Assembly: GCA_034431935.1 (NCBI GenBank)
Contig: DAOUCU010000059.1
Span: 2,132-66,131 of the forward strand
Origin: Dehalococcoidia bacterium
GTDB taxonomy: Bacteria > Chloroflexota > Dehalococcoidia > GIF9 > JBFMDU01
DNA length: 64,000 nt
Direction: 5' to 3'
The notes below the pieces were generated by a model. The model did no database searches, was not told the origin of the DNA, and saw only the letters and a list, made by a program, of their open reading frames with translations. A program made the position numbers and the translations under genes. Shown piece by piece: positions 17,886 through 57,425 of this stretch (position 1 is its first letter; each line of letters begins with the position of its first letter).

Positions 17886-17952
17886 CCTCATGATTCCAGT
17901 CGCATACTCTGTCTCAGTACCAAGTCACACGATGATGTTCAAGGAGTAGGCT

Positions 17953-21078: not shown

Positions 21079-21104
21079 ATTAGGGTGTAGTGTTCGTGTG
21101 TCAT

Positions 21105-21143
21105 AAAGGAGCGCTGTCGACCTTACCGGCGCTCCTTTTTTGC
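21105..21143 (+). terminator. Rho-independent terminator after the Fe-S/GltD fusion gene
   Basis: AAAGGAGCGC-(13-nt loop)-GCGCTCCTTTTTTGCG is a 10-bp GC-rich stem followed immediately by a T6 tract. Confidence 0.7.
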
Positions 21144-21169
21144 GTCCGTTATTTATATTGTCGATGCCT

Positions 21170-21198
21170 GTTGACCGAAGCGGGATTGTGTGATTAAA
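21170..21198 (+). promoter_or_regulatory. Putative promoter of the nuoE-nuoF-fdhA-nfnAB operon
   Basis: -35 TTGACC (21170-21175), a 17-bp spacer, and an extended -10 TGaTTAAAT (21190-21198). This leaves a leader of about 110 nt to the nuoE-like start. Confidence 0.4.
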
Positions 21199-21314
21199 TA
21201 TCCGGGACATACGCGGTTTACTCTAAGTGATTTCACTATCTACCTGGGCCGCCCGAGCGCGGCTCATTTCTATGTACGGTGGCTCCGTTCCAAAGCTTGC
21301 CTGTTGGAGGTACC

Positions 21315-21764
21315 ATGGATGTTGAGCTAGCCAAATCGCTTGAGCCTTACCGCAACCAGAAGGGTGCCCTGATCACCGTGCTTCAGAAGGTTCAGGAAAA
21401 GTACGGCTACCTGCCAAAGGATTTGTTGTCTGAGGTTGCCAAACTCTGCCGTACCTCCGTGAGTGACGTATTTGGAGTGGCCTCATTCTACGCACAGTTC
21501 TATTTCTCTCCCAGAGGGCGTCATACAATAAAGTGCTGTGTGGGAACTGCCTGCCACGTTCGTGGTGGTCAGCGTATTCTGGAAAGTGTGGAGAGAGAAC
21601 TGGAGACGAAGGCTGGTGGTACAACCCCGGATGGCAGATTCTCGGTGGAGAAAGTGGCTTGTTTCGGTTCTTGTGCGCTGGGGCCAGTAATCGTTATTGA
21701 CCGCAATGTTTACGGCCGCATGACACCAACTAAGGTTAAGGGTGCTCTGGAGAATTATCGTTAA
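21315..21764 (+). CDS. NuoE/FdsG/HoxE-like thioredoxin-fold [2Fe-2S] subunit
   Basis: CxxxxC...CxxxC arrangement (CCVGTACHVRGG ... CFGSCALGP). GGAGG lies 4 nt upstream of the ATG at 21315. An in-frame upstream ATG exists at 21279. Confidence 0.8.
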   Translation: MDVELAKSLEPYRNQKGALITVLQKVQEKYGYLPKDLLSEVAKLCRTSVSDVFGVASFYAQFYFSPRGRHTIKCCVGTACHVRGGQRILESVERELETKAGGTTPDGRFSVEKVACFGSCALGPVIVIDRNVYGRMTPTKVKGALENYR

Positions 21765-21777
21765 GGTGCGGTGAGAC

Positions 21778-24700
21778 ATGACCTTCGAAGAGTTAAAGTC
21801 ACGAGCTTTGGCTGAATGGCAGAGCTGGCACGACAGCCCAAAAGTACGTATCCTCGTGGGTACAGCTACGTGCGGCAAGGCCGCCGGTGCCGACAGTGTT
21901 GTAAAGGCTATTAGAGAGGAGCTGGCAAATCGGCACGTGGACGCAATTGTAACCGGGGTTGGTTGCATAGGCCTGTGCTATTTGGAGCCGATAGTAGATA
22001 TCATCAAGCCGGGTCAGCCCCGCATCGCGTACGGAAATGTCACGCCGGAGATTGCCGTTGAATTAGTGCGTGACTACGTCGTCGGAGACAATCCTCGTCG
22101 GGACTTGGCGCTGGGGACTATTGGAGAAGGTTCAGTCCAAGGAATACCCCGGCTTTTCGATACTCCGGTTCTCAAGCACCAGGTTCGGCTAGTCTTACGC
22201 AATTGCGGTTTTATCGACCCTGAAAGTATTAGTCACTATATTGCCAATGGTGGCTACTCAGGCTTTGTCAGGGCTCTCGGTATGAAGGCCGATCAGGTGA
22301 TTGACGAACTAAAGAAATCGGGGTTGAGGGGACGTGGTGGTGCCGGTTTTCCTACGTGGCAGAAGTGGGAATTCTGCCGCAGGTCACCCGGCACCCCAAA
22401 GTATGTCATTTGTAATGCCGATGAGGGTGACCCGGGGGCATTTATGAACCGCTCGCTACTGGAGGGCGACCCCCACGCCTTGTTAGAGGGCATGTTGATC
22501 GGCGGCTATGCGATTGGTGCTAGTCATGGCTACATATACTGCCGCGCTGAATACCCCCTGGCTTTGGAGCGCCTGCGCCTTGCGATTAGCCAGATGGGAA
22601 AGTGCGGTTTGATCGGCGATAACATTCTGGGCTCTGGCTTCAGCTTCGATATTACGATTAAGGAGGGTGCCGGAGCCTTTGTTTGTGGTGAAGAGACTGC
22701 TTTGATGGCCTCAATCGAAGGCAAGCGGGGTATGCCGCGTCCCCGTCCGCCCTTCCCGGCGGTCTCGGGTCTATGGGGTAAGCCAACGAATATCAATAAC
22801 GTTGAGACCTGGGCCGATGTTGCCCTGATACTTCAAAGAGGTGCCGACTTTTATGCTGGTTATGGTGTTCCTTCATGCAGGGGTACTAAGACCTTCTCGC
22901 TTGTGGGTAAGGTTGAGCGCACGGGGTTAATCGAAATCCCGTTTGGCATGACGCTGAGAAAAGTAATATATGACATCGGCGGCGGTATTCTGAAAGGAAA
23001 GAAATTCAAAGCAGTTCAGACCGGTGGTCCATCGGGGGGATGTTTGCCTCCTGCGGTGCTTGATATGCCGATTGATTACGAGTCCTTGACTGCCGCCGGG
23101 TCAATTATGGGGTCGGGTGGGATGATTGTGATGGATGAAGGGACATGTGTTGTCGACCTGGCCAAATACTTTCTTAATTTTGTTCAGGCCGAATCGTGCG
23201 GCAAGTGCGTGCCGTGCCGTGTGGGGACGCGGCAGATGCTGTCAGTCTTGACCCGGATAACCAGTGGCCAGGGTCGGGTGGGTGACATCGAACTGCTAGA
23301 AAAACTGGCCAGCACCGTCAAGAATGGCTCGCTCTGCGGTCTTGGCCAGACAGCTCCGAACCCGGTGCTAACCACGCTTAAGTATTTTCGCGAGGAGTAC
23401 GAAGAGCACATCAAGAAGCATCACTGCCGCGCGGCGGTATGCAAGGGGCTGGTTGAGGCGCCGTGCAGTCATACCTGCCCTGCCGGTATCGATGTACCGA
23501 GGTACATACGGTTTATCGAACAGGGCGAGTTTGGTGAGTCTTGCGCCACTATCCGTGAGAAGGTGCCGTTCCCCGGTGTGCTGGGCAGGGTCTGTTTCCA
23601 TCCATGTGAATCGAGATGCCGGCGCGGCCAGCTCGAACAGCCTGTTGCTATCAAGGAACTTAAGCGGCTTGCGGCTGATTTCGATAGCGGCGTCTGGAAG
23701 AAGCGGTTGACGCCAACCAAGCCGACAGGGAAAAGGGTGGCGGTAGTCGGCTCCGGTCCGGCCGGTCTGACCGCGGCTTACTATCTGGCCCGGCTGGGGC
23801 ATGAGGTGACTGTTTTTGAGGCATTGCCTCATGCCGGCGGCATGATGCGAGTTGGTATTCCTGAGTACAGGTTGCCCCGTAAAGTGTTGGATGGTGAAAT
23901 TGATGACATTCTCAGCATGGGCGTCACTATTAAAACGAATACGAAAGTGGCTTCACTGGATGTCCTCAAGGCTGATGGGTTTCAGGCGGTATTCGTGGCT
24001 GTCGGTGCCCACCGTGGTCAAAAGATTGGTATACCCGGAGAAGGAAGCTCCGGTGTCATGGAGGGTGTGGAGTTTCTGAGGTGCATCAGCCTTGGTGGAA
24101 AAGTGGTGGTGGGGGAGCGCGTAGCGGTTATCGGCGGCGGTAATGTTGCTATCGATGCCGCGCGCACCGCTCTGAGATTGGGTGCTAAGGATGTCTTGAT
24201 CCTTTATCGCCGTACCGAGGCGGAGATGCCGGCGGCACCAGAGGAAATCGAAGGTGCACGGCAGGAAGGAGTCAAGATAGTCTTTCTTGTAGCACCGCAC
24301 CGCATAGAGAAAAGGGATGGTAAGCTGGTTCTGGAAATGTTGCGGATGACACTCGGGGACAAGGCTGATGCCAGAGGTCGAAGACAGCCGGTAGCCGTTG
24401 ATGGTAGCCAGTTCTCGGAAGAGTTTGATACGGTAATTGTGGCCATTGGTCAGGTCCCCGATGTTCCCGCAAATTTCGGACTACCATCGGGTGACGGCGG
24501 CGTTATCAAAGTTGACCCGGATACGCTGGCGACTGTGAAGCCGGGAGTATTCTCCGGTGGTGACTGTGTCAGCGGTCCGGCTTCTGTGATTGAGGCAATA
24601 GCCGCCGGCCGCCAGGCTGCGGTCTCGATCGACCAATTCCTCGGCGGTAAAGGGAACATCGAAGAGAAATTGGCTCGTGAGGAGACGATAACCCCGCCGG

Positions 24701-24861
24701 AAATAGAAGAGGGAGAGGCCTACCGTCCCAAAATGCGTCATGCAAGCATGATTAGGCGCTGTGCCAGCTTCACCGAGGTAGATATTGGTCTCACTAGAAA
24801 AGCCGGAGTAAAGGAAACAAAGCGATGCCTTCGGTGCGACCTCGAGCCGAGGGAGGAGTAG
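21778..24861 (+). CDS. NuoF/FdsB-like NAD(H)/FMN subunit with an N-terminal thioredoxin-like [2Fe-2S] domain, fused C-terminally to a GltD/NfnB-like FAD/NAD(P)H oxidoreductase
   Basis: 1027 aa. FMN motif GRGGAGFPTWQKW, NADH site CNADEGDPGAF, N3 cluster ESCGKCVPCRVG...CGLGQ, then GltD-type Cys clusters (CSHTCPAGIDVP...CFHPCESRCRRG) and two dinucleotide folds (VAVVGSGPAGLTAAYYL, VAVIGGGNVAIDAAR). Confidence 0.85.
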   Translation: MTFEELKSRALAEWQSWHDSPKVRILVGTATCGKAAGADSVVKAIREELANRHVDAIVTGVGCIGLCYLEPIVDIIKPGQPRIAYGNVTPEIAVELVRDYVVGDNPRRDLALGTIGEGSVQGIPRLFDTPVLKHQVRLVLRNCGFIDPESISHYIANGGYSGFVRALGMKADQVIDELKKSGLRGRGGAGFPTWQKWEFCRRSPGTPKYVICNADEGDPGAFMNRSLLEGDPHALLEGMLIGGYAIGASHGYIYCRAEYPLALERLRLAISQMGKCGLIGDNILGSGFSFDITIKEGAGAFVCGEETALMASIEGKRGMPRPRPPFPAVSGLWGKPTNINNVETWADVALILQRGADFYAGYGVPSCRGTKTFSLVGKVERTGLIEIPFGMTLRKVIYDIGGGILKGKKFKAVQTGGPSGGCLPPAVLDMPIDYESLTAAGSIMGSGGMIVMDEGTCVVDLAKYFLNFVQAESCGKCVPCRVGTRQMLSVLTRITSGQGRVGDIELLEKLASTVKNGSLCGLGQTAPNPVLTTLKYFREEYEEHIKKHHCRAAVCKGLVEAPCSHTCPAGIDVPRYIRFIEQGEFGESCATIREKVPFPGVLGRVCFHPCESRCRRGQLEQPVAIKELKRLAADFDSGVWKKRLTPTKPTGKRVAVVGSGPAGLTAAYYLARLGHEVTVFEALPHAGGMMRVGIPEYRLPRKVLDGEIDDILSMGVTIKTNTKVASLDVLKADGFQAVFVAVGAHRGQKIGIPGEGSSGVMEGVEFLRCISLGGKVVVGERVAVIGGGNVAIDAARTALRLGAKDVLILYRRTEAEMPAAPEEIEGARQEGVKIVFLVAPHRIEKRDGKLVLEMLRMTLGDKADARGRRQPVAVDGSQFSEEFDTVIVAIGQVPDVPANFGLPSGDGGVIKVDPDTLATVKPGVFSGGDCVSGPASVIEAIAAGRQAAVSIDQFLGGKGNIEEKLAREETITPPEIEEGEAYRPKMRHASMIRRCASFTEVDIGLTRKAGVKETKRCLRCDLEPREE

Positions 24862-24863
24862 AG

Positions 24864-27539
24864 ATGACGACGAATGTCACTCTTACCATAGATGGCAGGG
24901 CAGTCTCTGTTCCACCGGGAGTAACCGTCCTGGAGGCGGCACGTAAGGCTGGCGTTTACATACCGACCCTCTGTCACCATGAGGCGTTAGACCCCTACGG
25001 CGGTTGCCGTATGTGTATCGTCGAAATTGAAGGTATGCGTGGCTTCCCTACCTCGTGTTCGACGCCCGTGGCCGATAAAATGGTGGTCAGGACCAGCACA
25101 ACCCAGATTCAGGAACTGAGGCGCAATATCTTCGAGCTGGTCCTTAGCGAGCACCCTTTCCAGTGCACGTCCTGTGTCAAGAATATGCGCTGTGAACTTC
25201 AACAGGTGGCTGCCCATATCGGGCTGGACAGAGTTTCTCTGCCGTCTGCAGTCAAGGACCTGCCGGTGCTTACTGATAGTGCTTTCTTTGACCGCGATTA
25301 CAAGCTGTGTATTCTCTGCGGCCGCTGTGTGCGTATGTGTCAGGAAGTGCGTGGCGCCGCCGCTATCGCTTTTACTTACAGGGGTGGTGATTCGCTGGTA
25401 GGCACTGCATTCGGGCAGACCCTTCAGGATGCCGAATGCCAGTTCTGCGGCGCCTGTGTTGACGTTTGTCCCACCGGCGCCCTGATGGACCGTGCTCTCA
25501 AGCCGGTCCGCTCGGTTGACCGCCGCGTCATTACCACCTGTCCTTACTGCGGAGTCGGCTGTCAGCTTCTTCTTTCGGTCAAGGACGGGAAGATAGTCTA
25601 TTCGGAAGCCGCACCCGGCATGTCGCCCAACAATGGACAGTTATGCGTCAAGGGCAAATACGGTATTCAAGAGTTCGTGCACCATCCGGAGCGTCTGGCC
25701 AGACCACTAATCCGTAAGGGCGGCAGGCTGGTCGAAAGCACCTGGGACGAGGCGCTTTCGTTGGTCGCATCCAGGCTATCACAATACAGGGGTGACCAGT
25801 TCGGTTTCGTCTCTTCGGCCAAGTGTACCAACGAGGAGAACTACGTGGGGCAGAAATTCGCTCGTCTGGTCATGGGCACCAACAACGTCGACCATTGCGC
25901 CCGGCTGTGTCACGCCTCGACCGTGGCTGGTCTAGCACAGGCCTTTGGTAGTGGTGCTATGACAAATCCCATCGGAGAAATCGCTGATGCCGGCTGTATC
26001 GTGGTCATCGGCAGTAACACCACGGAAGCTCACCCGGTGATCGGCCTCGAGGTCAAGCGCGCGGTGCGGCGTGGTGCTAAACTCATCGTGATTAATCCAC
26101 TTGAAATTGCTCTCTGCCGCAGGGCTGATATCTGGCTCAGACACAGACCGGGCAGTGACGTAGCCCTTGTTATGGGCATGGCCCGGGTTATTCTGGAGCA
26201 GGGTTTGGCCGATATGGACTTCGTCAATCAGCGCTGTGAAAACTTTGATGAGTTTAAAGAATCGCTGGGGGAATACGACCTTGATACAGTTGAAAGGCTG
26301 ACCGGTGTCAGCCGAGAAAATATCGTCGAAGCCGCCCGGACGTATGCCACCTTCAAACCGGCGGCTATTCTTTACACAATGGGCATAACACAGAGCAGCC
26401 ACGGCACCGATAATGTCCTCGCCATCGCCAACCTTGCCATGCTCACGGGCAATCTCGGCAGGTCTTCCAGCGGGGTTAATCCACTGCGCGGGCAGAATAA
26501 TGTCCAGGGTGCCTGCGATATGGGTGCTTTGCCTAACGTCTATCCGGGTTATCAGTCGGTTGCCGACCCGGCAATTGCTGCTAAGTTCGAAGCCGCTTGG
26601 GGCGGTAAGATGAACACCAAACCAGGGCTGACCATGACCGAGATGGTCGGCGCCATTGACCGCGGTGAAATGAGGGCTTTATATGTCATGGGCGAGAACC
26701 CGGTGCTGGCCGATGCTGATGCCAATCATGTTATTAAGGCTCTTGAGAAGCTGGAATTCCTTGTAGCTCAGGACATCTTTCTGACTGAGACCAGTCGGCT
26801 GGCCCATGTGGTACTCCCGGCGGCCAGCTTTGCCGAGAAAGATGGTACTTTTACCAACACCGAGCGCCGTGTCCAGCGTGTTCGTAAGGCGGTCGAGCCA
26901 CCGGGAGAGGCTTTGCCTGACTGGAGGATTGTCTGTAATGTAGCGTCCAGAATGGGGGCGAGCGGGTTCGCCTATTTGACTGCGGAAGAGATTATGAAAG
27001 AGATTGCTGCCTTGACACCGAGCTACGGAGGTATTACCTACGAGCGTCTGGAAAGTTGCGGGTTGCACTGGCCGTGTCCCATGATAGACCATCCCGGGAC
27101 GCCGGTCCTGCACCGGACAACCTTCAGCCGCGGCAAGGGTAGATTCTTCCCGCTCAAGTACCGTCCGCCGGCAGAGTTGCCGGACGCGGACTATCCACTG
27201 GTTCTAACTACAGGACGCTCTCTATTCCACTATCATACCGGCACTATGACTAGGAAGGTAGCGGGGCTTAACCAGATTGAGCCGGGCGGCACCGTTGAAA
27301 TCAATCCGGTTGATGCTGAAAGTCTTGGCATCGCTGATGGCGAGACGGTGAGAGTGAGTTCGCGGCGCGGCGCGGTCATGACCAAGGCAAAGGTGACCGA
27401 AGCTGTGGCCCCCGGAGTGGTCTTCATGGCGTTCCATTTTGCCGAGAGTCCGGCCAATGTGCTGACAAATGCGGCGCTTGACCCGGTGTGCAAGATACCG
27501 GAGTTCAAGGTATCCGCAGTAAGGATAGAAAAGGCTTAA
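24864..27539 (+). CDS. fdhA: Formate dehydrogenase catalytic subunit (FdsA/FdhF-like), Cys-type, with a NuoG-like N-terminal Fe-S domain
   Basis: Start at ATG 24864 with GGGAGGAG upstream, 2 nt after the previous stop. It has the Mo/W-bisPGD fold and a 4Fe-4S site CPYCGVGC...C. The catalytic motif NNVDHCARLCHAS aligns with FdhF RVUHGPS with Cys replacing Sec, and the Arg motif PLRGQNNVQGACDMGALPN is present. Confidence 0.9.
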   Translation: MTTNVTLTIDGRAVSVPPGVTVLEAARKAGVYIPTLCHHEALDPYGGCRMCIVEIEGMRGFPTSCSTPVADKMVVRTSTTQIQELRRNIFELVLSEHPFQCTSCVKNMRCELQQVAAHIGLDRVSLPSAVKDLPVLTDSAFFDRDYKLCILCGRCVRMCQEVRGAAAIAFTYRGGDSLVGTAFGQTLQDAECQFCGACVDVCPTGALMDRALKPVRSVDRRVITTCPYCGVGCQLLLSVKDGKIVYSEAAPGMSPNNGQLCVKGKYGIQEFVHHPERLARPLIRKGGRLVESTWDEALSLVASRLSQYRGDQFGFVSSAKCTNEENYVGQKFARLVMGTNNVDHCARLCHASTVAGLAQAFGSGAMTNPIGEIADAGCIVVIGSNTTEAHPVIGLEVKRAVRRGAKLIVINPLEIALCRRADIWLRHRPGSDVALVMGMARVILEQGLADMDFVNQRCENFDEFKESLGEYDLDTVERLTGVSRENIVEAARTYATFKPAAILYTMGITQSSHGTDNVLAIANLAMLTGNLGRSSSGVNPLRGQNNVQGACDMGALPNVYPGYQSVADPAIAAKFEAAWGGKMNTKPGLTMTEMVGAIDRGEMRALYVMGENPVLADADANHVIKALEKLEFLVAQDIFLTETSRLAHVVLPAASFAEKDGTFTNTERRVQRVRKAVEPPGEALPDWRIVCNVASRMGASGFAYLTAEEIMKEIAALTPSYGGITYERLESCGLHWPCPMIDHPGTPVLHRTTFSRGKGRFFPLKYRPPAELPDADYPLVLTTGRSLFHYHTGTMTRKVAGLNQIEPGGTVEINPVDAESLGIADGETVRVSSRRGAVMTKAKVTEAVAPGVVFMAFHFAESPANVLTNAALDPVCKIPEFKVSAVRIEKA

Positions 27540-27552
27540 AGGAGGCCTGCTG

Positions 27553-28410
27553 ATGTACCGGATTGTAGCCAAGGAGACGCTGGTCCCAAGCATCCAGTTG
27601 ATGAAAATAGACGCTCCGGCGGTGAGCCGCAAAGGCAGGGCTGGCCAGTTCGTCATTGTCCGCACCCACGAGCGCGGCGAGCGGATTCCTCTGACTATTG
27701 CCGATATGGACCCCAAAGAAGGGACGGTGACCATTGTTTTTCAGGAGGTCGGCAAGAGCACTCGCGAGCTGGCCATGTTTAAAGCCGGGGACTTAATTAA
27801 GGACTTCGTCGGCCCGCTGGGCATTCCAACTCATGTTGATAAAGTCGGCACTGTCGTTTGCGTCGCTGGCGGCGTTGGAGTGGCTCCCATCGCCCCCATT
27901 GCCCGGGCCTTTAAGCAGGCGGGCAACAGGGTGATTACCATCATGGGCGCGCGGAGCAAGAACCTGCTTTTCTGGGAAGACCGACTGAAGGCCGTCAGTG
28001 ACGAGTTGATTGTAACTACCGATGATGGCACCTACGGCCGCAAGGGCGTCGTCACCGTTCCTCTGAAAGAGGTGCTGGAGCGGCCTGAAAAAATAGCCGA
28101 GGTCATTGCTATCGGTCCGGTGGTGATGATGAAGTTCTGCTGTGTGACCACCAGGCCGTTCAACGTCAAGACCATCGTCAGCCTCAACTCGCTGATGCTT
28201 GATGGTACCGGTATGTGCGGCTGTTGCCGTGTTTCTGCTGGCGGTCAGACCAAGTTCGTCTGCGTTGACGGCCCGGATTTCGATGGTCACACTATCGACT
28301 GGGACATCTTCCAGGCACGCCAACAGATATATCTTGACGAAGAAAAGCAGGCGTTGCAGGAGTGGGAAAGGTGTGGGTGTGTCAGCGCCGCTCAGAAAGC
28401 GAGGGCTTAA
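27553..28410 (+). CDS. nfnA: NfnA/SudB/PyrK-like FAD/NAD(P)H oxidoreductase subunit with a C-terminal [2Fe-2S]
   Basis: 285 aa. AAAGGAGG lies 8 nt upstream. It has a ferredoxin-NADP reductase fold (GQFVIVR...RIPLTIAD; VVCVAGGVGVAPI) and a C-terminal Cys cluster MCGCCRVS...CVDGP. Confidence 0.8.
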   Translation: MYRIVAKETLVPSIQLMKIDAPAVSRKGRAGQFVIVRTHERGERIPLTIADMDPKEGTVTIVFQEVGKSTRELAMFKAGDLIKDFVGPLGIPTHVDKVGTVVCVAGGVGVAPIAPIARAFKQAGNRVITIMGARSKNLLFWEDRLKAVSDELIVTTDDGTYGRKGVVTVPLKEVLERPEKIAEVIAIGPVVMMKFCCVTTRPFNVKTIVSLNSLMLDGTGMCGCCRVSAGGQTKFVCVDGPDFDGHTIDWDIFQARQQIYLDEEKQALQEWERCGCVSAAQKARA

Positions 28411-28413
28411 GCC

Positions 28414-29808
28414 ATGGCCAAGCTTGATTTGAACCGTGTGGAGATGCCTCGTCAGGAGCCTAAGGTCCGGGCGAAGAACTTCAAAGAAGTGGCCCTGGGA
28501 TATACTGAAGATATGATGAAGGCTGAGGCCAGCCGGTGCATTCAGTGCGCCAAGCGTCCCTGCGTCGCCGGCTGTCCGGTCAATGTTGATATTCCCGAGT
28601 TCATCAGGGCACTTAAAGAGGGCAATTTGGCCGAGTCAGTGCGAATTCTCAAGGGCAAAAATGCCCTGCCGGCTATATGCGGTCGCGTCTGTCCTCAGGA
28701 GACTCAGTGCGAGGAGGCATGTACTTTGGGCAAGAAAGGCGCGCCTGTAGCCATCGGCCGCCTCGAGCGGTATGTCGCCGACTGGGAGCTTGCCCACCAC
28801 TCTGAGGGCAAGCCTCAGATACCGCCGCCGACCGGTAAGAGAATAGCCGTGGTTGGCACCGGGCCTGCCGGCCTCACCTGCGCCGCCGATCTCGCTAAGA
28901 TGGGCCATAAGGTGACCATGTTTGAGGCACTCCATGAGCCCGGTGGGGTGCTTATCTACGGTATCCCCGAGTTCCGTCTTCCCAAGGCTATCGTCAAGGC
29001 CGAGGTCGAGTACGTCAAGTCACTCGGCGTCGAGGTGCGTCTCGATTCCGTTATCGGCAAGCTGAATACCGTTGATGAGATTCTGGGCAGCTACGATGCC
29101 GTTTTCCTCGGCACCGGTGCCGGTCTGCCGATGTTTCTCGGTATCCCGGGAGAGAACCTGAATGGGGTCTATTCTGCCAACGAGTTCCTGACTCGTGTGA
29201 ACCTTATGAAAGCATACCTGTTTCCCGAGTACGACACGCCGGTGAAGAAAGGCCGTAAGGTGGCTGTCGTCGGCGCTGGCAATGTCGCCATGGACGCTGC
29301 CCGTTGTGCCCTGCGTCTGGGCGCCGAGCAGGTCTATATCGTCTACCGCCGCTCCAAAGTGGAAGCTCCGGCCAGGCATGAAGAGCTGGAAAACGCCGAA
29401 GAAGAGGGTGTCATTTTCAAATGGCTGACCAACCCCAAGCGCTTCATCGGCGACGCCAGAGGGTGGGTGACCGGGATGGAATGCCTTGAGATGGAGCTTG
29501 GCGAGCCGGATGCGTCGGGTCGGCGCCGTCCCATTCCCAAACCCGGTACCGAGTTCACCATTGAGTGCGATGTCGCCATCGTCGCCCTCGGCACTACCCC
29601 CAACCCTCTAATTGCCCAGACCACCCAGGGCCTGGCGACTACCAGCCACGGTACTGTAGTGGCCGATGAGCAGACTGGTAAGACAAAGAAAGATAGGGTC
29701 TGGGCCGGAGGCGATGTCGTCACCGGTGCCGCCACCGTCATCAGTGCTATGGGTGCTGGCAAACGTGCCGCGGCCTCAATAGACCAGTTCCTTAGAGGCG
29801 CTCAATAA
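28414..29808 (+). CDS. nfnB: NfnB/SudA/GltD-like NADPH-dependent oxidoreductase subunit
   Basis: 464 aa. Fe-S cluster motifs CIQCAKRPCVAGCP and CGRVCPQETQCEEAC, an FAD fold IAVVGTGPAGLTCAADL and an NADPH fold VAVVGAGNVAMDAARCALR. Confidence 0.85.
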   Translation: MAKLDLNRVEMPRQEPKVRAKNFKEVALGYTEDMMKAEASRCIQCAKRPCVAGCPVNVDIPEFIRALKEGNLAESVRILKGKNALPAICGRVCPQETQCEEACTLGKKGAPVAIGRLERYVADWELAHHSEGKPQIPPPTGKRIAVVGTGPAGLTCAADLAKMGHKVTMFEALHEPGGVLIYGIPEFRLPKAIVKAEVEYVKSLGVEVRLDSVIGKLNTVDEILGSYDAVFLGTGAGLPMFLGIPGENLNGVYSANEFLTRVNLMKAYLFPEYDTPVKKGRKVAVVGAGNVAMDAARCALRLGAEQVYIVYRRSKVEAPARHEELENAEEEGVIFKWLTNPKRFIGDARGWVTGMECLEMELGEPDASGRRRPIPKPGTEFTIECDVAIVALGTTPNPLIAQTTQGLATTSHGTVVADEQTGKTKKDRVWAGGDVVTGAATVISAMGAGKRAAASIDQFLRGAQ

Positions 29809-36610: not shown

Positions 36611-37797
36611 TTTTAGCTTACAGCGGCGGGCTGGATACATCGGTTGCCGTCCGCTGGATTGGTGAGAAATACAACATGGACGTTATTGCCGTCTGTGTCG
36701 ATATCGGCACAGTGAAAGACCTGCCGGCGATACAGGAGAAGGCGCTCAAAGTTGGCGCCGTCAAGTCGATGGTTATCGACGCCCGCGATACCTTCGTCAA
36801 TGACTATGTTTTTTCGGCGTTGATGGCCGATGCCGTCTATGAGGGGCAGTACCCGCTGGCGACGGCACTGGGACGGCCGCTGATTGTCAAAATCATGGTG
36901 GACATCGCGCGCCAGGAGAAGGCGGTGGCGGTGGCCCATGGCTCGACCGGAAAGGGCAACGACCAGGTGCGCTTTGACGCCGGTATAATCGCGCTGGCGC
37001 CGGACCTAAAAATCATCGCACCGGCCCGGGAGTGGGGTATGACCCGCGAGCAGACGATGGCCTACGCTAAGAAGCACGGTATCCCGGTGCCGACCACGGT
37101 TGCCAAGCCGTACTCGATTGACGAGAACCTCTGGGGCCGCAGTATTGAGTCCGGTATCCTCGAAGACCCGATGGTCGAGCCGCCGGAAGATATCTACAGT
37201 TGGACGAAGTCGGTGGACAAGTGCCCGGAGAAGCCGGCCTACGTTGAGATTGGCTTTGACAGAGGCGTGCCGGTCAGTCTTGACGGCAAGAAGCTCGGCG
37301 GTGTGGCCCTGGTTCAACAGTTGAACAAGCTGGCCGGTGATAACGGAGTGGGCCGTATTGACCATATTGAAAGCCGGCTGGTGGGCATTAAGTCGCGTGA
37401 AATCTACGAAGCACCGGCTGCGGTGACGCTGGTCAAAGCGCACCTAGCGCTGGAGGCGATGACGATGACGCGCCAGCAGTTGCGCTTCAAGGAACGGGTA
37501 GCCCAGGAGTACTCCGAGCTTGTCTACAACGGGTTATGGTTTTCCGCTTTGAGGCAGGAGCTTGATGCCTATGTGAGGATGTCGCAGCGCTTTGTCAGTG
37601 GCACGGTACGGGTTCGCCTGCACAAGGGCAACTGCACCGTGGTCGGGCGCGAGTCCGAGGTCTCCCTTTACAGTCATGCTTTGGCCACCTATGATAAGGG
37701 TGACGCGTTCGACCAGAGTCTCTCACCGGGTTTCATCCAGCTCTGGGCGCTGCCTTCCAAGATTCAGACTCAGAAACAGACTAAGGGGAAGTACTAG
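36589..37797 (+). CDS. argG: Argininosuccinate synthase
   Basis: KVVLAYSGGLDTS PP-loop, 402 aa. Its first 22 nt overlap the argD 3' end in a different frame. Confidence 0.9.
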   Translation: MASRKKVVLAYSGGLDTSVAVRWIGEKYNMDVIAVCVDIGTVKDLPAIQEKALKVGAVKSMVIDARDTFVNDYVFSALMADAVYEGQYPLATALGRPLIVKIMVDIARQEKAVAVAHGSTGKGNDQVRFDAGIIALAPDLKIIAPAREWGMTREQTMAYAKKHGIPVPTTVAKPYSIDENLWGRSIESGILEDPMVEPPEDIYSWTKSVDKCPEKPAYVEIGFDRGVPVSLDGKKLGGVALVQQLNKLAGDNGVGRIDHIESRLVGIKSREIYEAPAAVTLVKAHLALEAMTMTRQQLRFKERVAQEYSELVYNGLWFSALRQELDAYVRMSQRFVSGTVRVRLHKGNCTVVGRESEVSLYSHALATYDKGDAFDQSLSPGFIQLWALPSKIQTQKQTKGKY

Positions 37798-37804
37798 GGC
37801 AGGT

Positions 37805-39199
37805 ATGAAAGTGAAGACGGAGCAACTGCGCGGGCGCTTCGCCGGAAAACTGGATGATGCGGCCGCTGGCTACATCGCTTCGATTAACTTCGACCAGCGA
37901 CTCTACAAGCACGACATCGCCGGCAGTATCGCCCATGCCCGTATGCTGGGGGAGACCGGCATCATCAAGAAGGTTGAGGCAAAAAAAATTATCGCCGGGC
38001 TTAATGCCGTTCTGAAGGATATCGAATCCGGGAATGCCAAGCTGACGGTAGAGCTTGAGGATATCCACATGAACGTGGAATCGCTTTTGGCGGCGAAAAT
38101 CGGTGACGTTGCCGGCAAGCTTCATACGGCGCGGTCTCGTAACGACCAGATAGCGCTGGACATGCGCCTGTTCGTAAGAGACGCCATTGACGAGACGGTC
38201 GGTGCTTTGAGCGCAATGCAGGAAGCGCTGGTCAACCTGGCTGAGGCCAACAGGACCGTCGTCATGCCCGGCTATACACACCTCCAGCGTGCTCAGCCGG
38301 TGCTCTTTGCCCATTACCTGCTGGCTTATTTCGAGATGTTCCAGCGCGATGTCGAGCGGTTTGAGGACTGCCTGGACCGGGTAGACGTACTGCCGCTGGG
38401 GAGTGGGGCATTGGCTGGGGTGGCTTATCCCATCGACCGCGAGATGGTGGCGAAGGAGCTGGGATTTACTAATATCAGCCGCAACAGCCTTGATGCCGTC
38501 TCCGACCGCGACTTTATTGTTGAGTATGAGGCAGCGGCGGCGCTGGTTATGGCGCACCTTTCGCGGCTGGCTGAAGAGATAGTTTTGTGGTCGTCGGCCG
38601 AGTTCGGGTTCATCGAAGTCAGCGATGCTTACGCTACCGGCTCGAGCATTATGCCGCAGAAGAAAAACGCCGATACCGCCGAACTGGCGCGTGGCAAGGC
38701 GGGCAGGGTCTTCGGCCATCTGGCGGCGGTGCTGGCAACGCTCAAGGGCCTGCCGCTGGCTTACAACCGCGACATGCAGGAAGATAAGGAGGGGCTGTTC
38801 GATACGGTTGACACGGTCGTAAACAGTCTTAACATGATGGCCAGCGTGTTAGCGACGTTGAAAGTCAACGCCGATAGAATGCGTGCGGCTGCGGCGGGTA
38901 GCTATACGCTGGCTACGGACGTTGCTGATTACCTCGTTAAGAAAGGCCTGCCCTTCCGACATGCTCATAACATCGCCGGCAATCTGGTGAAATACGCCGC
39001 GGCGAAAGGCAAAGAGCTAAAGGAGTTGACTCTTAAAGAGTACCGTTCGTTCTCGCCGCTGTTCTCAAAAGATGTGCTTGACATAACAATCGAAGCGTCT
39101 TTGATGGCGCGCTCGGTCTATGGCGGCACGGCGCCGTTGCAAGTCAACAGGGCGCTGGCCGAAGCCAGAAAACTTCTGCGAGGCGAAGGTGGTGGGTAG
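37805..39199 (+). CDS. argH: Argininosuccinate lyase
   Basis: Internal ATG at 37805 ([14 protein letters not shown]...). Fumarate-lyase signature [12 protein letters not shown]. The ORF-track extension from 37592 overlaps argG and is rejected. Confidence 0.9.
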
Positions 39200-49778: not shown

Positions 49779-50780
49779 ATGAAGCGTGTCTTTTCCGGGG
49801 CCCGGCCGACGGGCCGCCAGCATATCGGTAATTACCTCGGCGCCATCCAGAATTACGTCAAGTTACAGGATGAATACGAGTGCGTCTACTGCGTGGTGGA
49901 TGTTCACGCGCTGACGACCATGGAGGAGACGGAGAAACTGGCCGAGAATACTCGTGAGATGATGCTGGACTGGCTGGCGGCGGGGCTTGACCCTGAGCGC
50001 AGCATTCTGTTCGTCCAATCGCACGTGCCTGAGGTGATGGAGCTTCACACCTTGCTGAGTATGGTGACCCCGCTGGGCTGGCTTCTGCGTGTGCCAACAT
50101 TCAAGGAGAAAGCACGTTCCCAGCCGCACAATGTCAACTACGGGTTGGTCGGTTATCCGGTATTGATGACTGCCGATATCATCCTTTACAAAGCCGAGGT
50201 GGTTCCGGTCGGTGAGGACCAACTGCCGCATCTGGAACTGGCGAGGGAGATTGTACGGCGTTTCAACACTATCTTCGGCGATACGTTTCTTGAGCCGCAG
50301 GCTAAGCTGACTTCATTTCCGATGGTGCTTGGTCTTGACGGGGCGCAGAAGATGAGCAAAAGTTACGGCAATACTATAGATTTGGTATTGACGGACGAGG
50401 AAACAACCCAGCGGGTAATGACAGCGGTTACGGACCCGGCACGCAGGTTCCGGAATGACCCCGGGCATCCTGATGTCTGCAATGTTTACCGGCTTCACCA
50501 GTACTTCAATGCTGGGCAGGCTAGTCTAATTCATAATGAATGCACTTCAGCAAAGCGCGGTTGTGTAGACTGTAAGAAGCAACTCGCGGTGAGCATGAAT
50601 ACCTTTCTGGCTCCGTTCCGCCAGCGCCGGGCTGAGTTAGCGGGCCGGCCTGATTATGTGGATGACGTGCTTGTGGACGGGGCCAGACGTGCCCGCGCCA
50701 TCGCTCAAGGGACAATCGCCGAGGTTCGCCAGAGAATGGGCTTCCTCAAACTGCCAGCGTCCAGACCTGTCAATGGTTGA
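49779..50780 (+). CDS. trpS: Tryptophan--tRNA ligase
   Basis: 333 aa. HIGH-type motif (TGRQHIGNYLGA) and KMSKS (KMSKS at QKMSKSYGN). Confidence 0.9.
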   Translation: MKRVFSGARPTGRQHIGNYLGAIQNYVKLQDEYECVYCVVDVHALTTMEETEKLAENTREMMLDWLAAGLDPERSILFVQSHVPEVMELHTLLSMVTPLGWLLRVPTFKEKARSQPHNVNYGLVGYPVLMTADIILYKAEVVPVGEDQLPHLELAREIVRRFNTIFGDTFLEPQAKLTSFPMVLGLDGAQKMSKSYGNTIDLVLTDEETTQRVMTAVTDPARRFRNDPGHPDVCNVYRLHQYFNAGQASLIHNECTSAKRGCVDCKKQLAVSMNTFLAPFRQRRAELAGRPDYVDDVLVDGARRARAIAQGTIAEVRQRMGFLKLPASRPVNG

Positions 50781-51588
50781 GCTTCCGCAATCGTCAAGCG
50801 GCCGCGATATTATGGATGTTGTTGACAGTGCGGCCAGGCAAGCCGGAGCGATTATCAGGGCGAGCTTCCGTGGCCATAACCAGGTCAAAGTCAAAGGCAG
50901 GAGCAATCTCGTTACTCAGGTGGATGTGTCAGCTGAGCAGGCTGTCCTCACAATCCTGCGGGCTGAGTATCCGGGATGTCCGGTACTTTCCTAGGAGACG
51001 AACAGTAGTACAGAGCTTTCCGGCTATACGTGGATAGTCGATCCTCTGGACGGTACTAACAATTTCGTTTTTGGCATACCCTTCCTGTGCGTTAACATTG
51101 CGCTGGTAAGAGATGGTGATGTTATCTTCGGTCTTACTTACGATCCTCTTCAGGACGAGTGCTTTCGTGCCCGGGCGGGATCGGGCTGTTTTCTTAATGG
51201 TGAGCGGATTTGCGTCTCATCACGCTCGAAATTAGAGGCCGCCATCGTAGGGTTTGACATCGGATATGACGTGAAATGGGGTGAGGAGGTATTTGAGTTG
51301 GCAAGTTTTCTCCGACCTGAGGTGCATAGCCTGAGGGTGATGGGTTCTGCGGCATTGTCTCTGGCGTATGTCGCCTGCGGCCGGCTGGACCTCTATTTTC
51401 ACAAGTACTTGTATCCGTGGGACACCGCACCGGGGATACTGCTGATCAAAGAGGCCGGTGGTATGGTTTCAGACTGGAACGGCCAGATGGCCACGCCGCT
51501 GACGCGCCAGATAGTCGGGGCGGGTGACGAGTTGAGACGGGAGTTCCTGCAATGGATAACAGGCCGTGGAATTGAAGGCAGGCGTTGA
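50773..51588 (+). pseudogene. suhB: Inositol monophosphatase (SuhB/IMPase family) gene interrupted by an in-frame TAG at 50992-50994
   Basis: Two same-frame ORFs (50656..50994 and onward to 51588) are separated only by TAG. Read-through gives ...AEYPGCPVLS*ETNSSTELSGYTWIVDPLDGTNNF..., in which * aligns with the first Glu of the conserved metal-binding EE(S)G motif. The downstream motifs WIVDPLDGT and YPWDTAPGILLIKEAGG are intact. The start is ambiguous (ATG 50773, overlapping the trpS stop, or ATG 50812). Confidence 0.7.
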
Positions 51589-55144: not shown

Positions 55145-55355
55145 AGGCTGCGCTCCTGTGTTTCACTGTGTTCTCGCCAGAGAATGGCAGGCATTATAGC
55201 ACGTGGCACGAATAGTGGTCATCTTCATTGAAGTTGCCGTGACCGCCGGGAACAAGCTATAATGTGCCAACGTCCCCAGACTGGCAGAGTTTTCACTGCG
55301 CCGTACTTTTTTGTTGCGGAGTATGCCAGACTCAGATCGTAGAGGTTAGATAGAA

Positions 55356-57425
55356 TTGCAACAGTATCTGCCGAAGCAAATTAGAAACGTGGTTCTATTG
55401 GGCCATTCCAATAGTGGCAAGACCTCTCTTGTCGAATCCGTGTTATTTTCTGCGGGGGCTATAAGCCGTCTTGGTACGGTTAATGACGGTACCACCACCT
55501 CCGACTTTGAGCCGGAGGAGACCAGAAGGAAGATCAGCATCAGCCTTTCTTTGCTTCCTCTGGAATGGAAGGGTACCAAGGTAAATTTTCTGGACACACC
55601 GGGTTATCCAGACTTCGTCGGTGAGGTCAAGTCGGGGCTTCGTGTTACCGAGGCGGCGATTATTGTGGTGTGCGCCGCTTCCGGAGTCGAGGTCGGTACG
55701 GAACAGGCCTGGGCTTTTGTCAATGAGGCCCGTATGCCCAGGGTCATTTTTGTCAACAAGATGGATCGTGACAACGCCGACTTCTTCCGGACGTTAAAGG
55801 ATATCGAGGCCAAATTCGGCGCAAACTGTCTGCCTTTGCAACTGCCAATTGGCGCCGAGAAGAACTTCAAAGGAATTGTGGACATTATCAGCGGCAAAAC
55901 TCTCGGTGCCGGCCAGACCGCCGGCCCAGGGGTGCCGGCCCAATTGAAACAGCAGATAGATTCCTATCGGGAGAAGCTGGTGGAGGTGGCGGTTGAGGCT
56001 GATGATGCTATCCTATCGCGATACCTCGAAGGCGGTACGGTTACCGATGAAGAAATACTTCGGGGATTGAAGCAGGCGGTCATTCAGGGCAGGCTTACTC
56101 CGGTACTTGTCGGGTCGGGGCTTGCTAATATGGGCGCCGCCGCGCTTCTTGATGTCGTTTGTCAGTATTTGCCGTCACCGGCGGATGTCGGCGTGGAAGC
56201 CGTAATAGCCTCGGGCGAAAAGGTCAAAATTGATGCCGATCCATCTGGCCCGCTGGCGGCCTTTGTTTTTAAGACTACCGCTGATCCGTATGTCGGAAAG
56301 CTAAGCTACTTCCGGGTGTATTCCGGGACGGTTTTCAGCAACTCTCAGGTGTGGAATGCGGCCAAGAACTCGGTGGAGAGACTTGGGCAGCTATTCATTC
56401 TCCGCGGCAAGAACCAGGAGACGGTCCAGCAGGTCATGGCTGGCGATATCGGGGCAGTAGCGCGCCTGTCAGCTACCAGCACAGGTGATTCATTGACGGC
56501 GCGTGAGAAGCCGGTGCTATTGCCGCCGGTCAATTTTCCTCAACCGAACTTGAGCAAGGCGGTCTATCCGAAGTCTAAGAATGACCTGGACAAGATGAGT
56601 ACCATCTTGCCCAGGCTTTGTGAGGAGGATCCGACTCTGACCGTGAGGCGCGATTCTGATACGGCTGAGATTATCCTTTCCGGGCTCGGTGAGACCCATC
56701 TTGAGGCTGCTGCTGAAAAGATGGCGCGCAAGTTCGGGGTTGAGGTCAAATTGGAGCCGCCGAAGATTCCCTACCGTGAAACCATACTGAAAAAGGTTAC
56801 GGCCGAGTACAAGCACAAGAAGCAAACGGGAGGGCACGGGCAGTACGGGCATGTGGTGATTGAGTTGGAACCGTTGCCCCGCGGCACCGGATTTGAGTTC
56901 GCCGAGCGTGTCGTTGGCGGAGCGGTACCAAAGAACTATTATCCTGCGGTTGAGAAGGGAATCAACGAAGCCAGGCAGGAAGGCGTGATGGCCGGATATC
57001 CGGTGATAGATGTCCGAGCAACGTTGACTGACGGCAGTTCACACCCGGTGGACTCGTCGGAAATAGCATTTAAAATTGCGGCCGCTGCGGCTTTGAAGAA
57101 AGGCCTGACAGAGGGGCAGCCAGTTCTTCTTGAGCCGGTGGTAAATCTGAATGTTGCGGTTCCTGAGGGTTTTGTCGGCGATATTATCAGTGACCTCAAT
57201 ACCAAGCGTGGCCGTGTCATGGGGATGACTCCGCAGGGAGGTGTTACTACAATTCAGGCGCAGGTGCCTCTGGCTGAGGTTATGAGATACTCAATTGATT
57301 TGAGGTCGATTACTCAGGGTCGCGGGACTTACAGCATGGAATTCAGCCATTACGAGGAAGTCCCGGCCCACGTGGCGCAAAAGGTGATAGCCGAAAAGCA
57401 AGCTCGCGAAACGGAAAAACAGTAG
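55356..57425 (+). CDS. Elongation factor G family GTPase (divergent EF-G paralogue; catalytic His of the DxPGH motif replaced by Tyr)
   Basis: 689 aa. TTG start with GAGG 9 nt upstream; it is the first start codon after an in-frame stop. G1 GHSNSGKT, G3 DTPGYPDF, G4 NKMD. EF-G domains II-V are present (for example GDIGAVARL and the domain IV/V regions). Confidence 0.8.
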   Translation: MQQYLPKQIRNVVLLGHSNSGKTSLVESVLFSAGAISRLGTVNDGTTTSDFEPEETRRKISISLSLLPLEWKGTKVNFLDTPGYPDFVGEVKSGLRVTEAAIIVVCAASGVEVGTEQAWAFVNEARMPRVIFVNKMDRDNADFFRTLKDIEAKFGANCLPLQLPIGAEKNFKGIVDIISGKTLGAGQTAGPGVPAQLKQQIDSYREKLVEVAVEADDAILSRYLEGGTVTDEEILRGLKQAVIQGRLTPVLVGSGLANMGAAALLDVVCQYLPSPADVGVEAVIASGEKVKIDADPSGPLAAFVFKTTADPYVGKLSYFRVYSGTVFSNSQVWNAAKNSVERLGQLFILRGKNQETVQQVMAGDIGAVARLSATSTGDSLTAREKPVLLPPVNFPQPNLSKAVYPKSKNDLDKMSTILPRLCEEDPTLTVRRDSDTAEIILSGLGETHLEAAAEKMARKFGVEVKLEPPKIPYRETILKKVTAEYKHKKQTGGHGQYGHVVIELEPLPRGTGFEFAERVVGGAVPKNYYPAVEKGINEARQEGVMAGYPVIDVRATLTDGSSHPVDSSEIAFKIAAAAALKKGLTEGQPVLLEPVVNLNVAVPEGFVGDIISDLNTKRGRVMGMTPQGGVTTIQAQVPLAEVMRYSIDLRSITQGRGTYSMEFSHYEEVPAHVAQKVIAEKQARETEKQ

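Follow-up and report, generated by a model that had tools for sequence, protein, structure and literature searches.

An EF-G paralogue with tyrosine at the catalytic histidine position in a Dehalococcoidia genome: probable membership of the EFG II (EF-G2) subfamily

When an elongation factor G (EF-G)-like gene lacks the "universally conserved" catalytic histidine, is it an anomaly of one genome or the mark of a known family, and what would such a protein do on the ribosome? This question is raised by a 689-aa protein encoded in a 64-kb stretch of Dehalococcoidia DNA, the whole of which we analysed and refer to as the window. Our answer to the first part is that the gene is very probably an ordinary member of the known EFG II/EF-G2 family of second-copy translocation factors, so that the observation is correct and the thing observed is already known. 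The second part is answered below in more graded terms, with a slow and largely hydrolysis-free translocase as the preferred reading.

The gene and its GTPase motifs

A TTG start had been proposed for this gene from the sequence alone, and it was borne out by the 689-aa open reading frame on the plus strand, by a GAGG upstream of it, and by the start codon site, which is conserved in close relatives (TTG/TTG/GTG). The next in-frame alternative, a GTG (Val12), was rejected because it would delete the first beta-strand before the P-loop, and also since homologues align from residue 3. A consensus scan of the divergent intergenic region returned one promoter-like element, and comparison of intergenic sequences found it kept in relatives of 97% and 85% identity. 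An Rfam search of the whole window, including the region upstream of this gene, gave zero regulatory RNA matches, and the fold of the putative 95-nt leader was not superior to that of shuffled sequences (z = 0.45). The gene and its candidate expression signals are as follows:

55356..57425, plus strand: coding sequence of the probable EFG II (EF-G2-type) elongation factor G paralogue (689 aa, TTG start, stop included)
55342..55345, plus strand: Shine-Dalgarno-like GAGG, 10 nt before the TTG start, kept in relatives
55234..55263, plus strand: putative promoter-like TTGCCG-18-TATAAT, from the consensus scan, in the divergent intergenic region

The gene is under strong purifying selection, with dN/dS of 0.09 and 0.05 against close relatives and low values in the G domain as well, and because of these ratios we conclude that it is functional and selected. 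An identical protein was found on independent assemblies.

All five EF-G domains, which the sequence-only reading had recognised, were recovered by Pfam (GTP_EFTU, EF-G_D2, EFG_III, EFG_IV, and EFG_C). The best structure matches were solved EF-G structures (E = 1e-199), and the near-gapless alignment to them settles the EF-G fold of the protein. The GTPase motifs and the tip of domain IV lie at the following positions:

55401..55424, plus strand: G1/P-loop GHSNSGKT, residues 16-23; fits GxxxxGK[ST], without the Ile and Asp of canonical AHIDAGKT
55527..55541, plus strand: G2/switch I RKISI, residues 58-62; Ser61 replaces the Mg-coordinating Thr of RGITI, as in the r/kxxSI of Chloroflexi EFG II
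55593..55607, plus strand: G3/switch II DTPGY, residues 80-84; Tyr84 at the catalytic His position in an ungapped alignment
55755..55766, plus strand: G4 NKMD, residues 134-137; canonical guanine-specificity motif
56829..56843, plus strand: domain IV tip loop GGHGQ, residues 492-496; GGRGQ in canonical EF-G

The initial observation was of an EF-G paralogue with a complete nucleotide-binding site, with DTPGY for DTPGH and with an atypical P-loop, GHSNSGKT. These elements stand as described, both in the motif positions and in the G-domain alignment to T. thermophilus EF-G, which is ungapped and places Tyr84 exactly on the catalytic His; there is no indel that would bring a His into place. The Ser-type G2, RKISI, had gone unnoticed in that first observation. 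The P-loop Asp of canonical EF-G is missing as well, being replaced by Asn19, and the hydrophobic-gate Ile is replaced by Ser18; the P-loop His is retained. The G5 motif, GSGLAN, is canonical-like. After DTPGY comes (P)DFVGE, a motif of EFG II type, and the domain IV loops GGHGQYGHV and SHPVDSSE are well kept. The His form of the tip loop, GGHGQ, is common to T. thermophilus EF-G-2 and M. smegmatis EF-G2.

Family assignment and the spread of the histidine loss

The EFG II subfamily was defined by Margus, Remm & Tenson (2011, PLoS One 6:e22789), who gave Gly16, Leu25, Thr291, Gly333, and Lys/Arg352 as its type I signatures (1WDT numbering). In the aligned columns, the 689-aa protein carries all five (G16, L25, T307, G351, and R370), where T. 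thermophilus EF-G has A, T, I, A, and G. The first of these signatures lies within the P-loop and the second, Leu25, two residues past the GHSNSGKT span. The same study describes the G2 motif of EFG II as relaxed from RGITI to xxxSx, with r/kxxSI in the Chloroflexi subgroup; it makes no comment on the residue after DxPG. The G1, G3, G4, and G5 consensus of EFG II is kept in our protein (GHSNSGKT, DTPG, NKMD, and GSGLAN), and no family-defining feature differs from the Chloroflexi sub-subgroup of Margus et al. (2011). Gly16 is family-typical here, and most Dehalococcoidia relatives carry Ser at that position.

In a simple neighbor-joining tree of 169 sequences, built on corrected p-distances, the protein grouped with the EF-G2 structures 1WDT, 9K0Z, and 7UVP. 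The bipartition between canonical EF-G and the rest was recovered in 100 of 100 bootstraps (50 taxa), the canonical side consisting of T. thermophilus EF-G, Dictyoglomus EF-G, and three other AHIDAGKT/DTPGH representatives. Judged by these signatures and this tree, the product of 55356-57425 very probably belongs to the EFG II (EF-G2) subfamily, in its Chloroflexota/Dehalococcoidia branch.

Family models place the protein less finely. It scored 963.5 bits against a cut-off of 583 for NF009381 (NCBIfam PRK12740.1-5, "elongation factor G" subfamily), with residues 1-687 aligned to model positions 1-691, and it also exceeded the trusted cut-offs of the TIGR00484 EF-G equivalog (714.2 vs 659.4 bits) and the NF009891 "elongation factor G" equivalog (696 vs 597). 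Scores fell below the cut-offs of NF009377 ("elongation factor G-like protein EF-G2" equivalog; 689.6 bits vs 890) and of NF058620, the Bacteroides-type EF-G2 model, which matched in two pieces (596 bits vs 1000). NF009377 covers a narrower EF-G2 lineage than the EFG II of Margus et al., and the TIGR00484 cut-off fails to separate this EFG II branch from fusA. Such genes are therefore annotated simply as "elongation factor G", which is the name that database sources give to the relatives of our protein.

The residue at the catalytic-His site was followed through three sets of relatives. Tyr occupied it in 120 of the 120 nearest protein clusters. At the species-genome loci, 67 of which were parsed out of 80, the counts were 65 Tyr, two Phe, and no His. 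The 150 nearest 50%-identity representatives were more varied: seven carried His and 143 another residue (Tyr in 72, Phe in 30, and the rest in smaller numbers), and the residues seen across the clade also include Asp, Ala, Leu, Asn, and Ser. The characterised relatives read DAPGY (1WDT), DTPGY (9K0Z), and DCPGS (7UVP). Given the cluster and locus counts, the recurrence of the identical protein on independent assemblies, and a dN/dS of 0.05-0.09, Tyr84 is neither chance nor a sequencing error. Loss of the catalytic His, usually to Tyr, is the norm of a large and already described EFG II/EF-G2 subfamily. The substitution that the sequence-only reading had singled out is real, but it is not peculiar to one gene; it is visible in 1WDT and was explicitly described for M. 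smegmatis EF-G2.

Genomic context

The gene had been noted as lying divergently from gatCA, and this position is confirmed, with an intergenic region of 211 bp; it is no evidence of functional coupling. Its neighbours are gatCA, etfAB, and prmC-prfA, the last two convergent with it. Across 80 related loci, gatCA was adjacent in 11, the etfAB genes in 32 and 29, and prmC-prfA in 17 and 16. Functional coupling to gatCA was rejected on the strength of adjacency in 11 of the 80 loci only, and the pattern looks like synteny inherited from a common ancestor within the Dehalococcoidia. The surroundings of the gene are those of a housekeeping chromosomal region with conserved synteny, and they show no mobile-element context.

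Searches with S12, S7, and EF-Tu (tblastn) found no rpsL, rpsG, or tuf in the window, and at the 80 related genome loci neither S12 nor S7 turned up within 10 kb; the gene is not part of the str operon (rpsL-rpsG-fusA-tuf). No other EF-G gene was found within the 64 kb, nor a second EF-G within 10 kb at any of the 80 related loci. A literature search for two EF-G genes in Dehalococcoides returned no usable report.

That the window holds no other EF-G, that relatives are named "elongation factor G", and that the trusted cut-offs of TIGR00484 and NF009891 are passed would all agree with the gene being the sole, canonical EF-G (fusA) of the organism, with an incidental His-to-Tyr change. We consider this very improbable, as AHIDAGKT, RGITI, and DTPGH are all missing, rpsL-rpsG does not adjoin the gene, whether in the window or at the 80 related loci, and every bootstrap splits the protein from canonical EF-G. 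In a survey of 305 genomes, moreover, every EFG that stood alone was EFG I, and no EFG II occurred without a second EFG, which was usually EFG I.

A ribosome-protection paralogue, which had also been suggested, is unsupported. The protein is a distant homologue of TetM/TetO, like all EF-G-like proteins (tet_protect, E = 1.5e-103), but it scored 347 bits for that model (NF012153) against a cut-off of 775, and its structure match to TetM/TetO was about 190 bits compared with 665 bits to EF-G. TetM itself keeps the catalytic His (DTPGH), and the housekeeping synteny without mobile elements described above also speaks against this reading. We find it scarcely credible that the gene encodes a TetM/TetO-type protein that dislodges tetracycline from the ribosome.

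Proposed function and comparison with known factors

Taken as a whole, the explanation that we favour, and hold to be probable with some reserve, is that of an EFG II member acting as a slow, largely hydrolysis-free translocase. Its functional part, an alternative translocase with little or no stimulated GTPase, is by itself about evenly balanced between being right and being wrong. Under this model, the gene would be a second, non-str-operon copy of the translocase, and a canonical EF-G (fusA) would be encoded elsewhere in the same genome. The five-domain body is retained in full, as are the pocket for the guanine nucleotide (Walker A, Ser-type G2, DxPG, NKMD, and G5) and the domain IV tip, the driver of tRNA-mRNA movement. 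Lost are the three elements by which, in canonical EF-G, the sarcin-ricin loop of the ribosome triggers fast GTP hydrolysis (catalytic His to Tyr84, P-loop Asp to Asn19, and gate Ile to Ser18). The protein would be expected to bind GTP, to dock in the ribosomal A-site/GTPase centre as EF-G does, and to translocate slowly, the ribosome stimulating its GTP hydrolysis little or not at all. Its role may be that of an alternative, energy-sparing or stress-phase elongation factor, presumably in conditional use.

The well-kept domain IV loops and G4/G5 motifs, with 44.8% identity to T. thermophilus EF-G, argue that the protein would still act on the ribosome as a translocase. A different role, in which it occupies the factor-binding site under stress and modulates or parks ribosomes without moving tRNAs, has been proposed for mycobacterial EF-G2, and M. 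smegmatis EF-G2 is both the nearest characterised protein in our tree (entering at a 31-terminal clade) and a DTPGY protein without ribosome-dependent GTPase. However, the domain IV tips that contact the decoding centre are much better conserved in our protein (GGHGQYGHV) than in M. smegmatis EF-G2 (GGHGQYAVC), G4 and G5 are canonical here where the mycobacterial protein shows TKLD and a G5 that has diverged, and translocation by EF-GII has been reported with no EF-G present. We regard such a non-translocating regulator as improbable, and a rescue or hibernation role, as also raised from the sequence alone, as speculation.

It is reasonable to predict the second half of the favoured reading, a ribosome-stimulated GTP hydrolysis that is weakened or missing. 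The earlier description of the protein as hydrolysis-impaired is plausible in that two of the three characterised relatives are without ribosome-dependent GTPase, but it is overstated, since activity is reported for T. thermophilus EF-G-2, which carries the same Tyr. The His argument alone is no proof of a hydrolysis defect for the same reason. Papers citing Connell et al. (2007) credit T. thermophilus EF-G-2 with ribosome-dependent GTPase, a higher intrinsic GTPase, and poly(Phe)/translocation activity, and its P-loop (GHAGSGKT) and DAPGY are similar to those of our protein. Of the EFG II proteins in the comparison, ours has diverged least (it keeps the P-loop His, NKMD, and G5) and, given the reportedly active Thermus protein with the same Tyr, it may hydrolyse GTP. 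It could then be a fully GTPase-competent second translocase, in which another group or an altered geometry replaces the His and which differs from EF-G mainly in kinetics or regulation. This would also sit well with the TIGR00484 score (714 vs 659). We think it unlikely, though to be taken seriously: the H88Y change removes nearly all GTPase from mycobacterial EF-G1, the activity is missing from M. smegmatis EF-G2, whose Tyr98 points away from the gamma-phosphate, and our protein lacks the P-loop Asp and gate Ile in addition. Phe, Asp, Ala, Leu, Asn, and Ser are furthermore all accepted at the site across the clade, which gives no sign of a conserved catalytic side chain.

It is also conceivable, although we hold it to be doubtful, that the Dehalococcoidia branch could be the principal, routine translocase of slow-growing, energy-limited anaerobes, working without GTP hydrolysis or by His-independent hydrolysis. 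In the His-independent variant, the near-invariant aromatic (Tyr/Phe) could be active at the sarcin-ricin loop. The branch could, as part of the same reading, be an unusually slowly evolving EFG II lineage (45% identity to canonical EF-G, dN/dS ~0.05). If true, this would provide a natural system in which to ask to what extent translocation depends on the hydrolysis of GTP.

What this analysis chiefly offers is a warning to those who annotate or scan genomes. An EF-G-like gene without the "universally conserved" catalytic His is no anomaly; the missing residue is diagnostic of the EFG II/EF-G2 family, which is widespread. EFG II genes are still labelled simply "elongation factor G" by standard EF-G models, TIGR00484 among them. 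EF-G2 proteins are increasingly seen as alternative translation factors, GTP-sparing or regulatory, that serve in starvation, and the near-universal presence and strong conservation of EF-G2 in Dehalococcoidia fit an energy-limited lifestyle. No new principle is added to those known from the EF-G2 proteins of Thermus, Mycobacterium, and Bacteroides.

Among known systems, canonical EF-G (EFG I, fusA; T. thermophilus EF-G, PDB 1DAR/2BM1) shares with our protein the five domains in near-gapless alignment, NKMD, G5, and the domain IV tips. It has AHIDAGKT, RGITI, DTPGH, and a place in the str operon, whereas the 689-aa protein has GHSNSGKT, RKISI, and DTPGY, is encoded outside that operon, and falls in a separate clade. 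TetM/TetO share the EF-G superfamily and its domain layout but keep DTPGH, and the protein is far below their family cut-offs.

The EF-G2/FusA2 of B. thetaiotaomicron (PDB 7UVP, 8DMF; NF058620) belongs to the same large non-His clade, at only 34.8% identity and with GSSGSGKT, YGYSV, DCPGS, NQLD, and a domain IV insertion. Papers citing Han et al. (2023, EMBO J; PMC9841332) report that it supports GTP-independent translation/translocation, lacks ribosome-stimulated GTPase, and is induced >200-fold on carbon limitation. M. smegmatis EF-G2 (PDB 9K0Z, 9K10; 40.0% identity) is alike in DTPGY, with Tyr for the catalytic His, and in DFVGE and GGHGQ; it has, however, lost the P-loop His (GPSGGGKT) and carries TKLD, a diverged G5, and a domain II insertion, and our protein is far less diverged. 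T. thermophilus EF-G-2 (PDB 1WDT, 2DY1; 40.9% identity) has TKLD, a diverged G5, and RTTV at G2 where our protein has NKMD, a canonical-like G5, RKISI, and about 25 more residues. The two share a GH..SGKT P-loop with its His, the Tyr after DxPG, DFVGE, and GGHGQYG.

The EF-G2-type gene and its surroundings

The gene encodes a 689-residue product with all five EF-G domains, as the sequence-only reading had described, and the ORF call, the Pfam matches and the conservation of the start codon in relatives all agree with that description.

Features of the EF-G2-type gene and its product (domains from Pfam; residues are those of the window protein)
55234-55263: promoter-like TTGCCG-18-TATAAT, kept in close relatives
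55356..57425 (+): EF-G2-type ORF, 689 aa, TTG start
Residues 7-274: GTP_EFTU
Residues 16-23: G1, GHSNSGKT
Residues 58-62: G2, RKISI
Residues 80-84: G3, DTPGY
Residues 134-137: G4, NKMD
G5: recognisable
Residues 300-382: EF-G_D2
Residues 394-467: EFG_III
Residues 469-586: EFG_IV
Residues 590-676: EFG_C

A GAGG lies 10 nt 5' of the TTG, and the start position is common to the 97% and 85% identical relatives (TTG and GTG). The next in-frame start, Val12, was rejected. The TTG start stands because starting at Val12 would trim the strand running into the P-loop, and because solved EF-G structures and homologues align with the window protein from residue 3. Nei-Gojobori dN/dS was 0.089 against the 97% relative and 0.050 against the 85% relative (0.157 and 0.066, respectively, for the G domain alone). 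Judged from its sequence, the gene is intact and under strong constraint, and looks expressed. An identical protein is encoded on the NCBI MAG contig CAZFZZ010000079.1 (GCA_964523555.1) and in an independent Logan assembly.

The gene is divergent from gatC-gatA, as previously noted, across a spacer of 211 bp. Upstream lie trpS and then, on the minus strand, an aminotransferase, an Lrp/AsnC regulator, gatA and gatC; downstream and convergent are etfA-etfB and prmC-prfA. This neighborhood is a housekeeping one. Among 80 related loci from species-representative genomes, etfA is the convergent downstream neighbor in 32, while prmC, prfA and gatCA occur in 17, 16 and 11, respectively. The gatA-gatC / EF-G2 / etfA-etfB-prmC-prfA order is widely kept among Dehalococcoidia genomes (e.g., L032, L002, L015, and L019), and locus L032 (4161-15893) holds the whole trpS-to-prfA block in the same order. 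The gene order is synteny inherited within Dehalococcoidia and gives no functional clue. No special structure was found in the leader, and Rfam had no match anywhere in the window.

Several other features of the window were recorded. The inositol-monophosphatase-like gene at 50656-51588 (+) is seemingly split across reading frames, with only a 96-aa Inositol_P fragment in the source annotation, and either a pseudogene created by a frameshift or a mistake in the MAG assembly could account for this. The redox cluster resembles a complex of the formate dehydrogenase type, linked to NAD(P)H and possibly electron-bifurcating. The seeming gap 5' of pnp (12455-13759) contains three small genes, identified by eye.

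Other features of the window
12455-12748 (-): DUF503/YlxP-like, 97 aa
12824-13210 (-): CxxC zinc-ribbon protein, 128 aa
Ending at 13759 (+): rpsO (S15), directly 5' of pnp
18886-29808 (+): large redox gene cluster with a 730-aa Fer2/Fer4/GltD-like fusion, a NuoE-like 2Fe-2S protein, a 1027-aa NuoF-GltD-like fusion, a 904-aa molybdopterin (formate-dehydrogenase-type) subunit, a DHODB-type Fe-S protein and a GltD-like protein
50656-50994 (+): inositol-monophosphatase-like N-terminal part
51271-51588 (+): inositol-monophosphatase-like C-terminal part, with the WDTAPG motif

The 645-aa acetyl-CoA hydrolase/transferase at 1796-3733 (-) carries a C-terminal GNAT acetyltransferase domain. Its neighbors are a GPR1/FUN34/YaaH acetate-transporter-like gene and an AMP-binding (acetyl-CoA synthetase-like) ORF, which lies at the edge of the window and is truncated. 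Between dapB and dapA, two ORFs of about 340 aa each, 16845-17891 (-) and 16872-17885 (+), overlap almost completely on opposite strands; the former has no Pfam match. Mechanical start calls make argH (37592-39199, +; TTG at 37592) overlap argG by about 200 nt and fabF (4935-6584, +; GTG at 4935) overlap a convergent radical-SAM gene. The true starts of both are further downstream, since the Pfam matches start only at residue 81 and residue 136, respectively.

Replacement of the catalytic histidine

In canonical factors, the sarcin-ricin loop triggers hydrolysis by way of the catalytic His, the P-loop Asp and the gate Ile. The window protein has Tyr84, Asn19 and Ser18 in their places. Both the GHSNSGKT P-loop and the DTPGY reported earlier are present, and the whole N-terminal G domain aligns with Thermus thermophilus EF-G without a gap, with Tyr84 on the catalytic His; no His is therefore concealed by an indel. 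In sequence, the nucleotide pocket is complete (Walker A Lys/Thr, Ser61, DxPG, NKMD, and G5), Ser61 being able to coordinate Mg like the Ser of other Ser-type GTPases (Margus et al., 2011).

The Tyr is no private oddity of this gene. All of the 120 nearest protein clusters (61-97% identity, Chloroflexota/Dehalococcoidia where named) have D.PGY, and none has the Asp of AHIDAGKT; the P-loop is SH[SQGC]GAGKT in most of them, the GHSNSGKT form being confined to the six closest. In the 67 of 80 species-representative genomes that could be parsed, the residue was Tyr in 65, Phe in two and never His. When 1.84 billion 50%-identity representatives were scanned exhaustively with HMMER, 6178 matched at E <= 1e-30. 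Among the best 150, the residue after DxPG was His in only seven (Tyr 72, Phe 30, Asp 10, Ala 7, Leu 6, Asn 5, Ser 5, and a few others). The former catalytic position thus holds an aromatic residue in 68% of these EFG II representatives and His in less than 5%. This tally across a very large clade is a by-product that may be useful. Two of the 150 (P0163 and P0241) have His together with a non-canonical P-loop, and another, P0190 (1040 aa), is a canonical-type EF-G extended at its N-terminus by 348 residues.

Assignment to EFG II

Among bacterial EF-G proteins, Margus, Remm and Tenson (2011) distinguished the canonical EFG I of the str operon, spdEFG1/2 and EFG II. The last keeps G1, G3, G4 and G5, sits outside the str operon, has a relaxed G2 (xxxSx, Ser for Thr, with lineage variants including r/kxxSI in a Chloroflexi sub-subgroup) and bears five signature residues (Gly16, Leu25, Thr291, Gly333, and Lys/Arg352). 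The window protein shows each of these traits, including RKISI as G2, and has G16, L25, T307, G351 and R370 at the signature columns, against A, T, I, A and G in T. thermophilus EF-G. Genes for S12, S7 and EF-Tu were sought without success in the 64-kb window, and none of the 80 related loci yielded one for S12 or S7. Two Chloroflexota genomes have tuf a few kb away from the EF-G2 gene, on the other strand (L016, 54-1256; L017, 1505-2711); neither rpsL, rpsG nor fusA adjoins it, so that in these genomes it stands apart from any str operon.

In a neighbor-joining tree of 169 sequences, the canonical sequences with AHIDAGKT and DTPGH (EF-G of T. thermophilus and of Dictyoglomus, and three others) branch off first, and the three EF-G2 proteins that have been studied experimentally all fall in the same clade as the window protein. 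The split between canonical EF-G and this clade was recovered in 100 of 100 bootstrap replicates on a 50-taxon subset. The NCBI curated subfamily model NF009381 matches end to end (963 bits; cut-off 583). It likewise scores above the cut-off of the TIGR00484 "EF-G" model (714 versus 659) and falls short of those of the narrower "EF-G2" equivalogs, which explains its plain database name, elongation factor G. The family-level explanation is secure.

Function and comparison with known EF-G-type proteins

With moderate confidence, we read the window protein as a translocase with weak or no GTPase, on the basis of its sequence and of analogy. It would bind GTP, dock on the ribosome as EF-G does and translocate slowly with little or no stimulated hydrolysis, and would act as an alternative, energy-sparing or stress-phase factor alongside a canonical EF-G. 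Domain IV tips promote tRNA-mRNA movement, and those of the window protein are well kept. In Mycobacterium smegmatis EF-G2, which is without ribosome-dependent GTPase, the equivalent Tyr98 faces away from the gamma-phosphate, and H88Y nearly abolishes the GTPase of mycobacterial EF-G1. Bacteroides thetaiotaomicron EF-G2 is reported to support GTP-hydrolysis-independent translation; carbon limitation induces it more than 200-fold, and fusA drops at the same time.

The main caveat to the weak-GTPase translocase is T. thermophilus EF-G-2, which bears the same Tyr and is reported to have ribosome-dependent GTPase, raised intrinsic GTPase and poly(Phe) activity. Of the EFG II proteins compared, moreover, the window protein has diverged least: it is 44.8% identical to T. 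thermophilus EF-G and retains NKMD, G5 and the His of the P-loop. These two points set the weights given here, under which a GTPase-competent second translocase is unlikely but worth keeping in view, and a regulator that does not translocate is less likely still. The "hydrolysis-impaired" label of the sequence-only reading is plausible but unproven. Its suggestion of ribosome protection finds no support: a TetM/TetO-type protein is excluded by a score of 347 bits against a cut-off of 775, and TetM itself has DTPGH.

The substitution and the family are already known. The 2011 description of EFG II already included a Chloroflexi subgroup, and structure 1WDT, of the 2004 era, shows the Tyr. For mycobacterial EF-G2, the change from His to Tyr has been set out explicitly, together with its consequence. 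In the deposited PDB sequences, the corresponding motifs are GHAGSGKT / DAPGY / TKLD in T. thermophilus EF-G-2 (1WDT), GPSGGGKT / DTPGY / TKLD in M. smegmatis EF-G2 (9K0Z) and GSSGSGKT / YGYSV / DCPGS / NQLD in B. thetaiotaomicron EF-G2 (7UVP). The window protein has two further marks in common with EFG II: switch II contains DFVGE, and the tip loop of domain IV contains GGHGQ.
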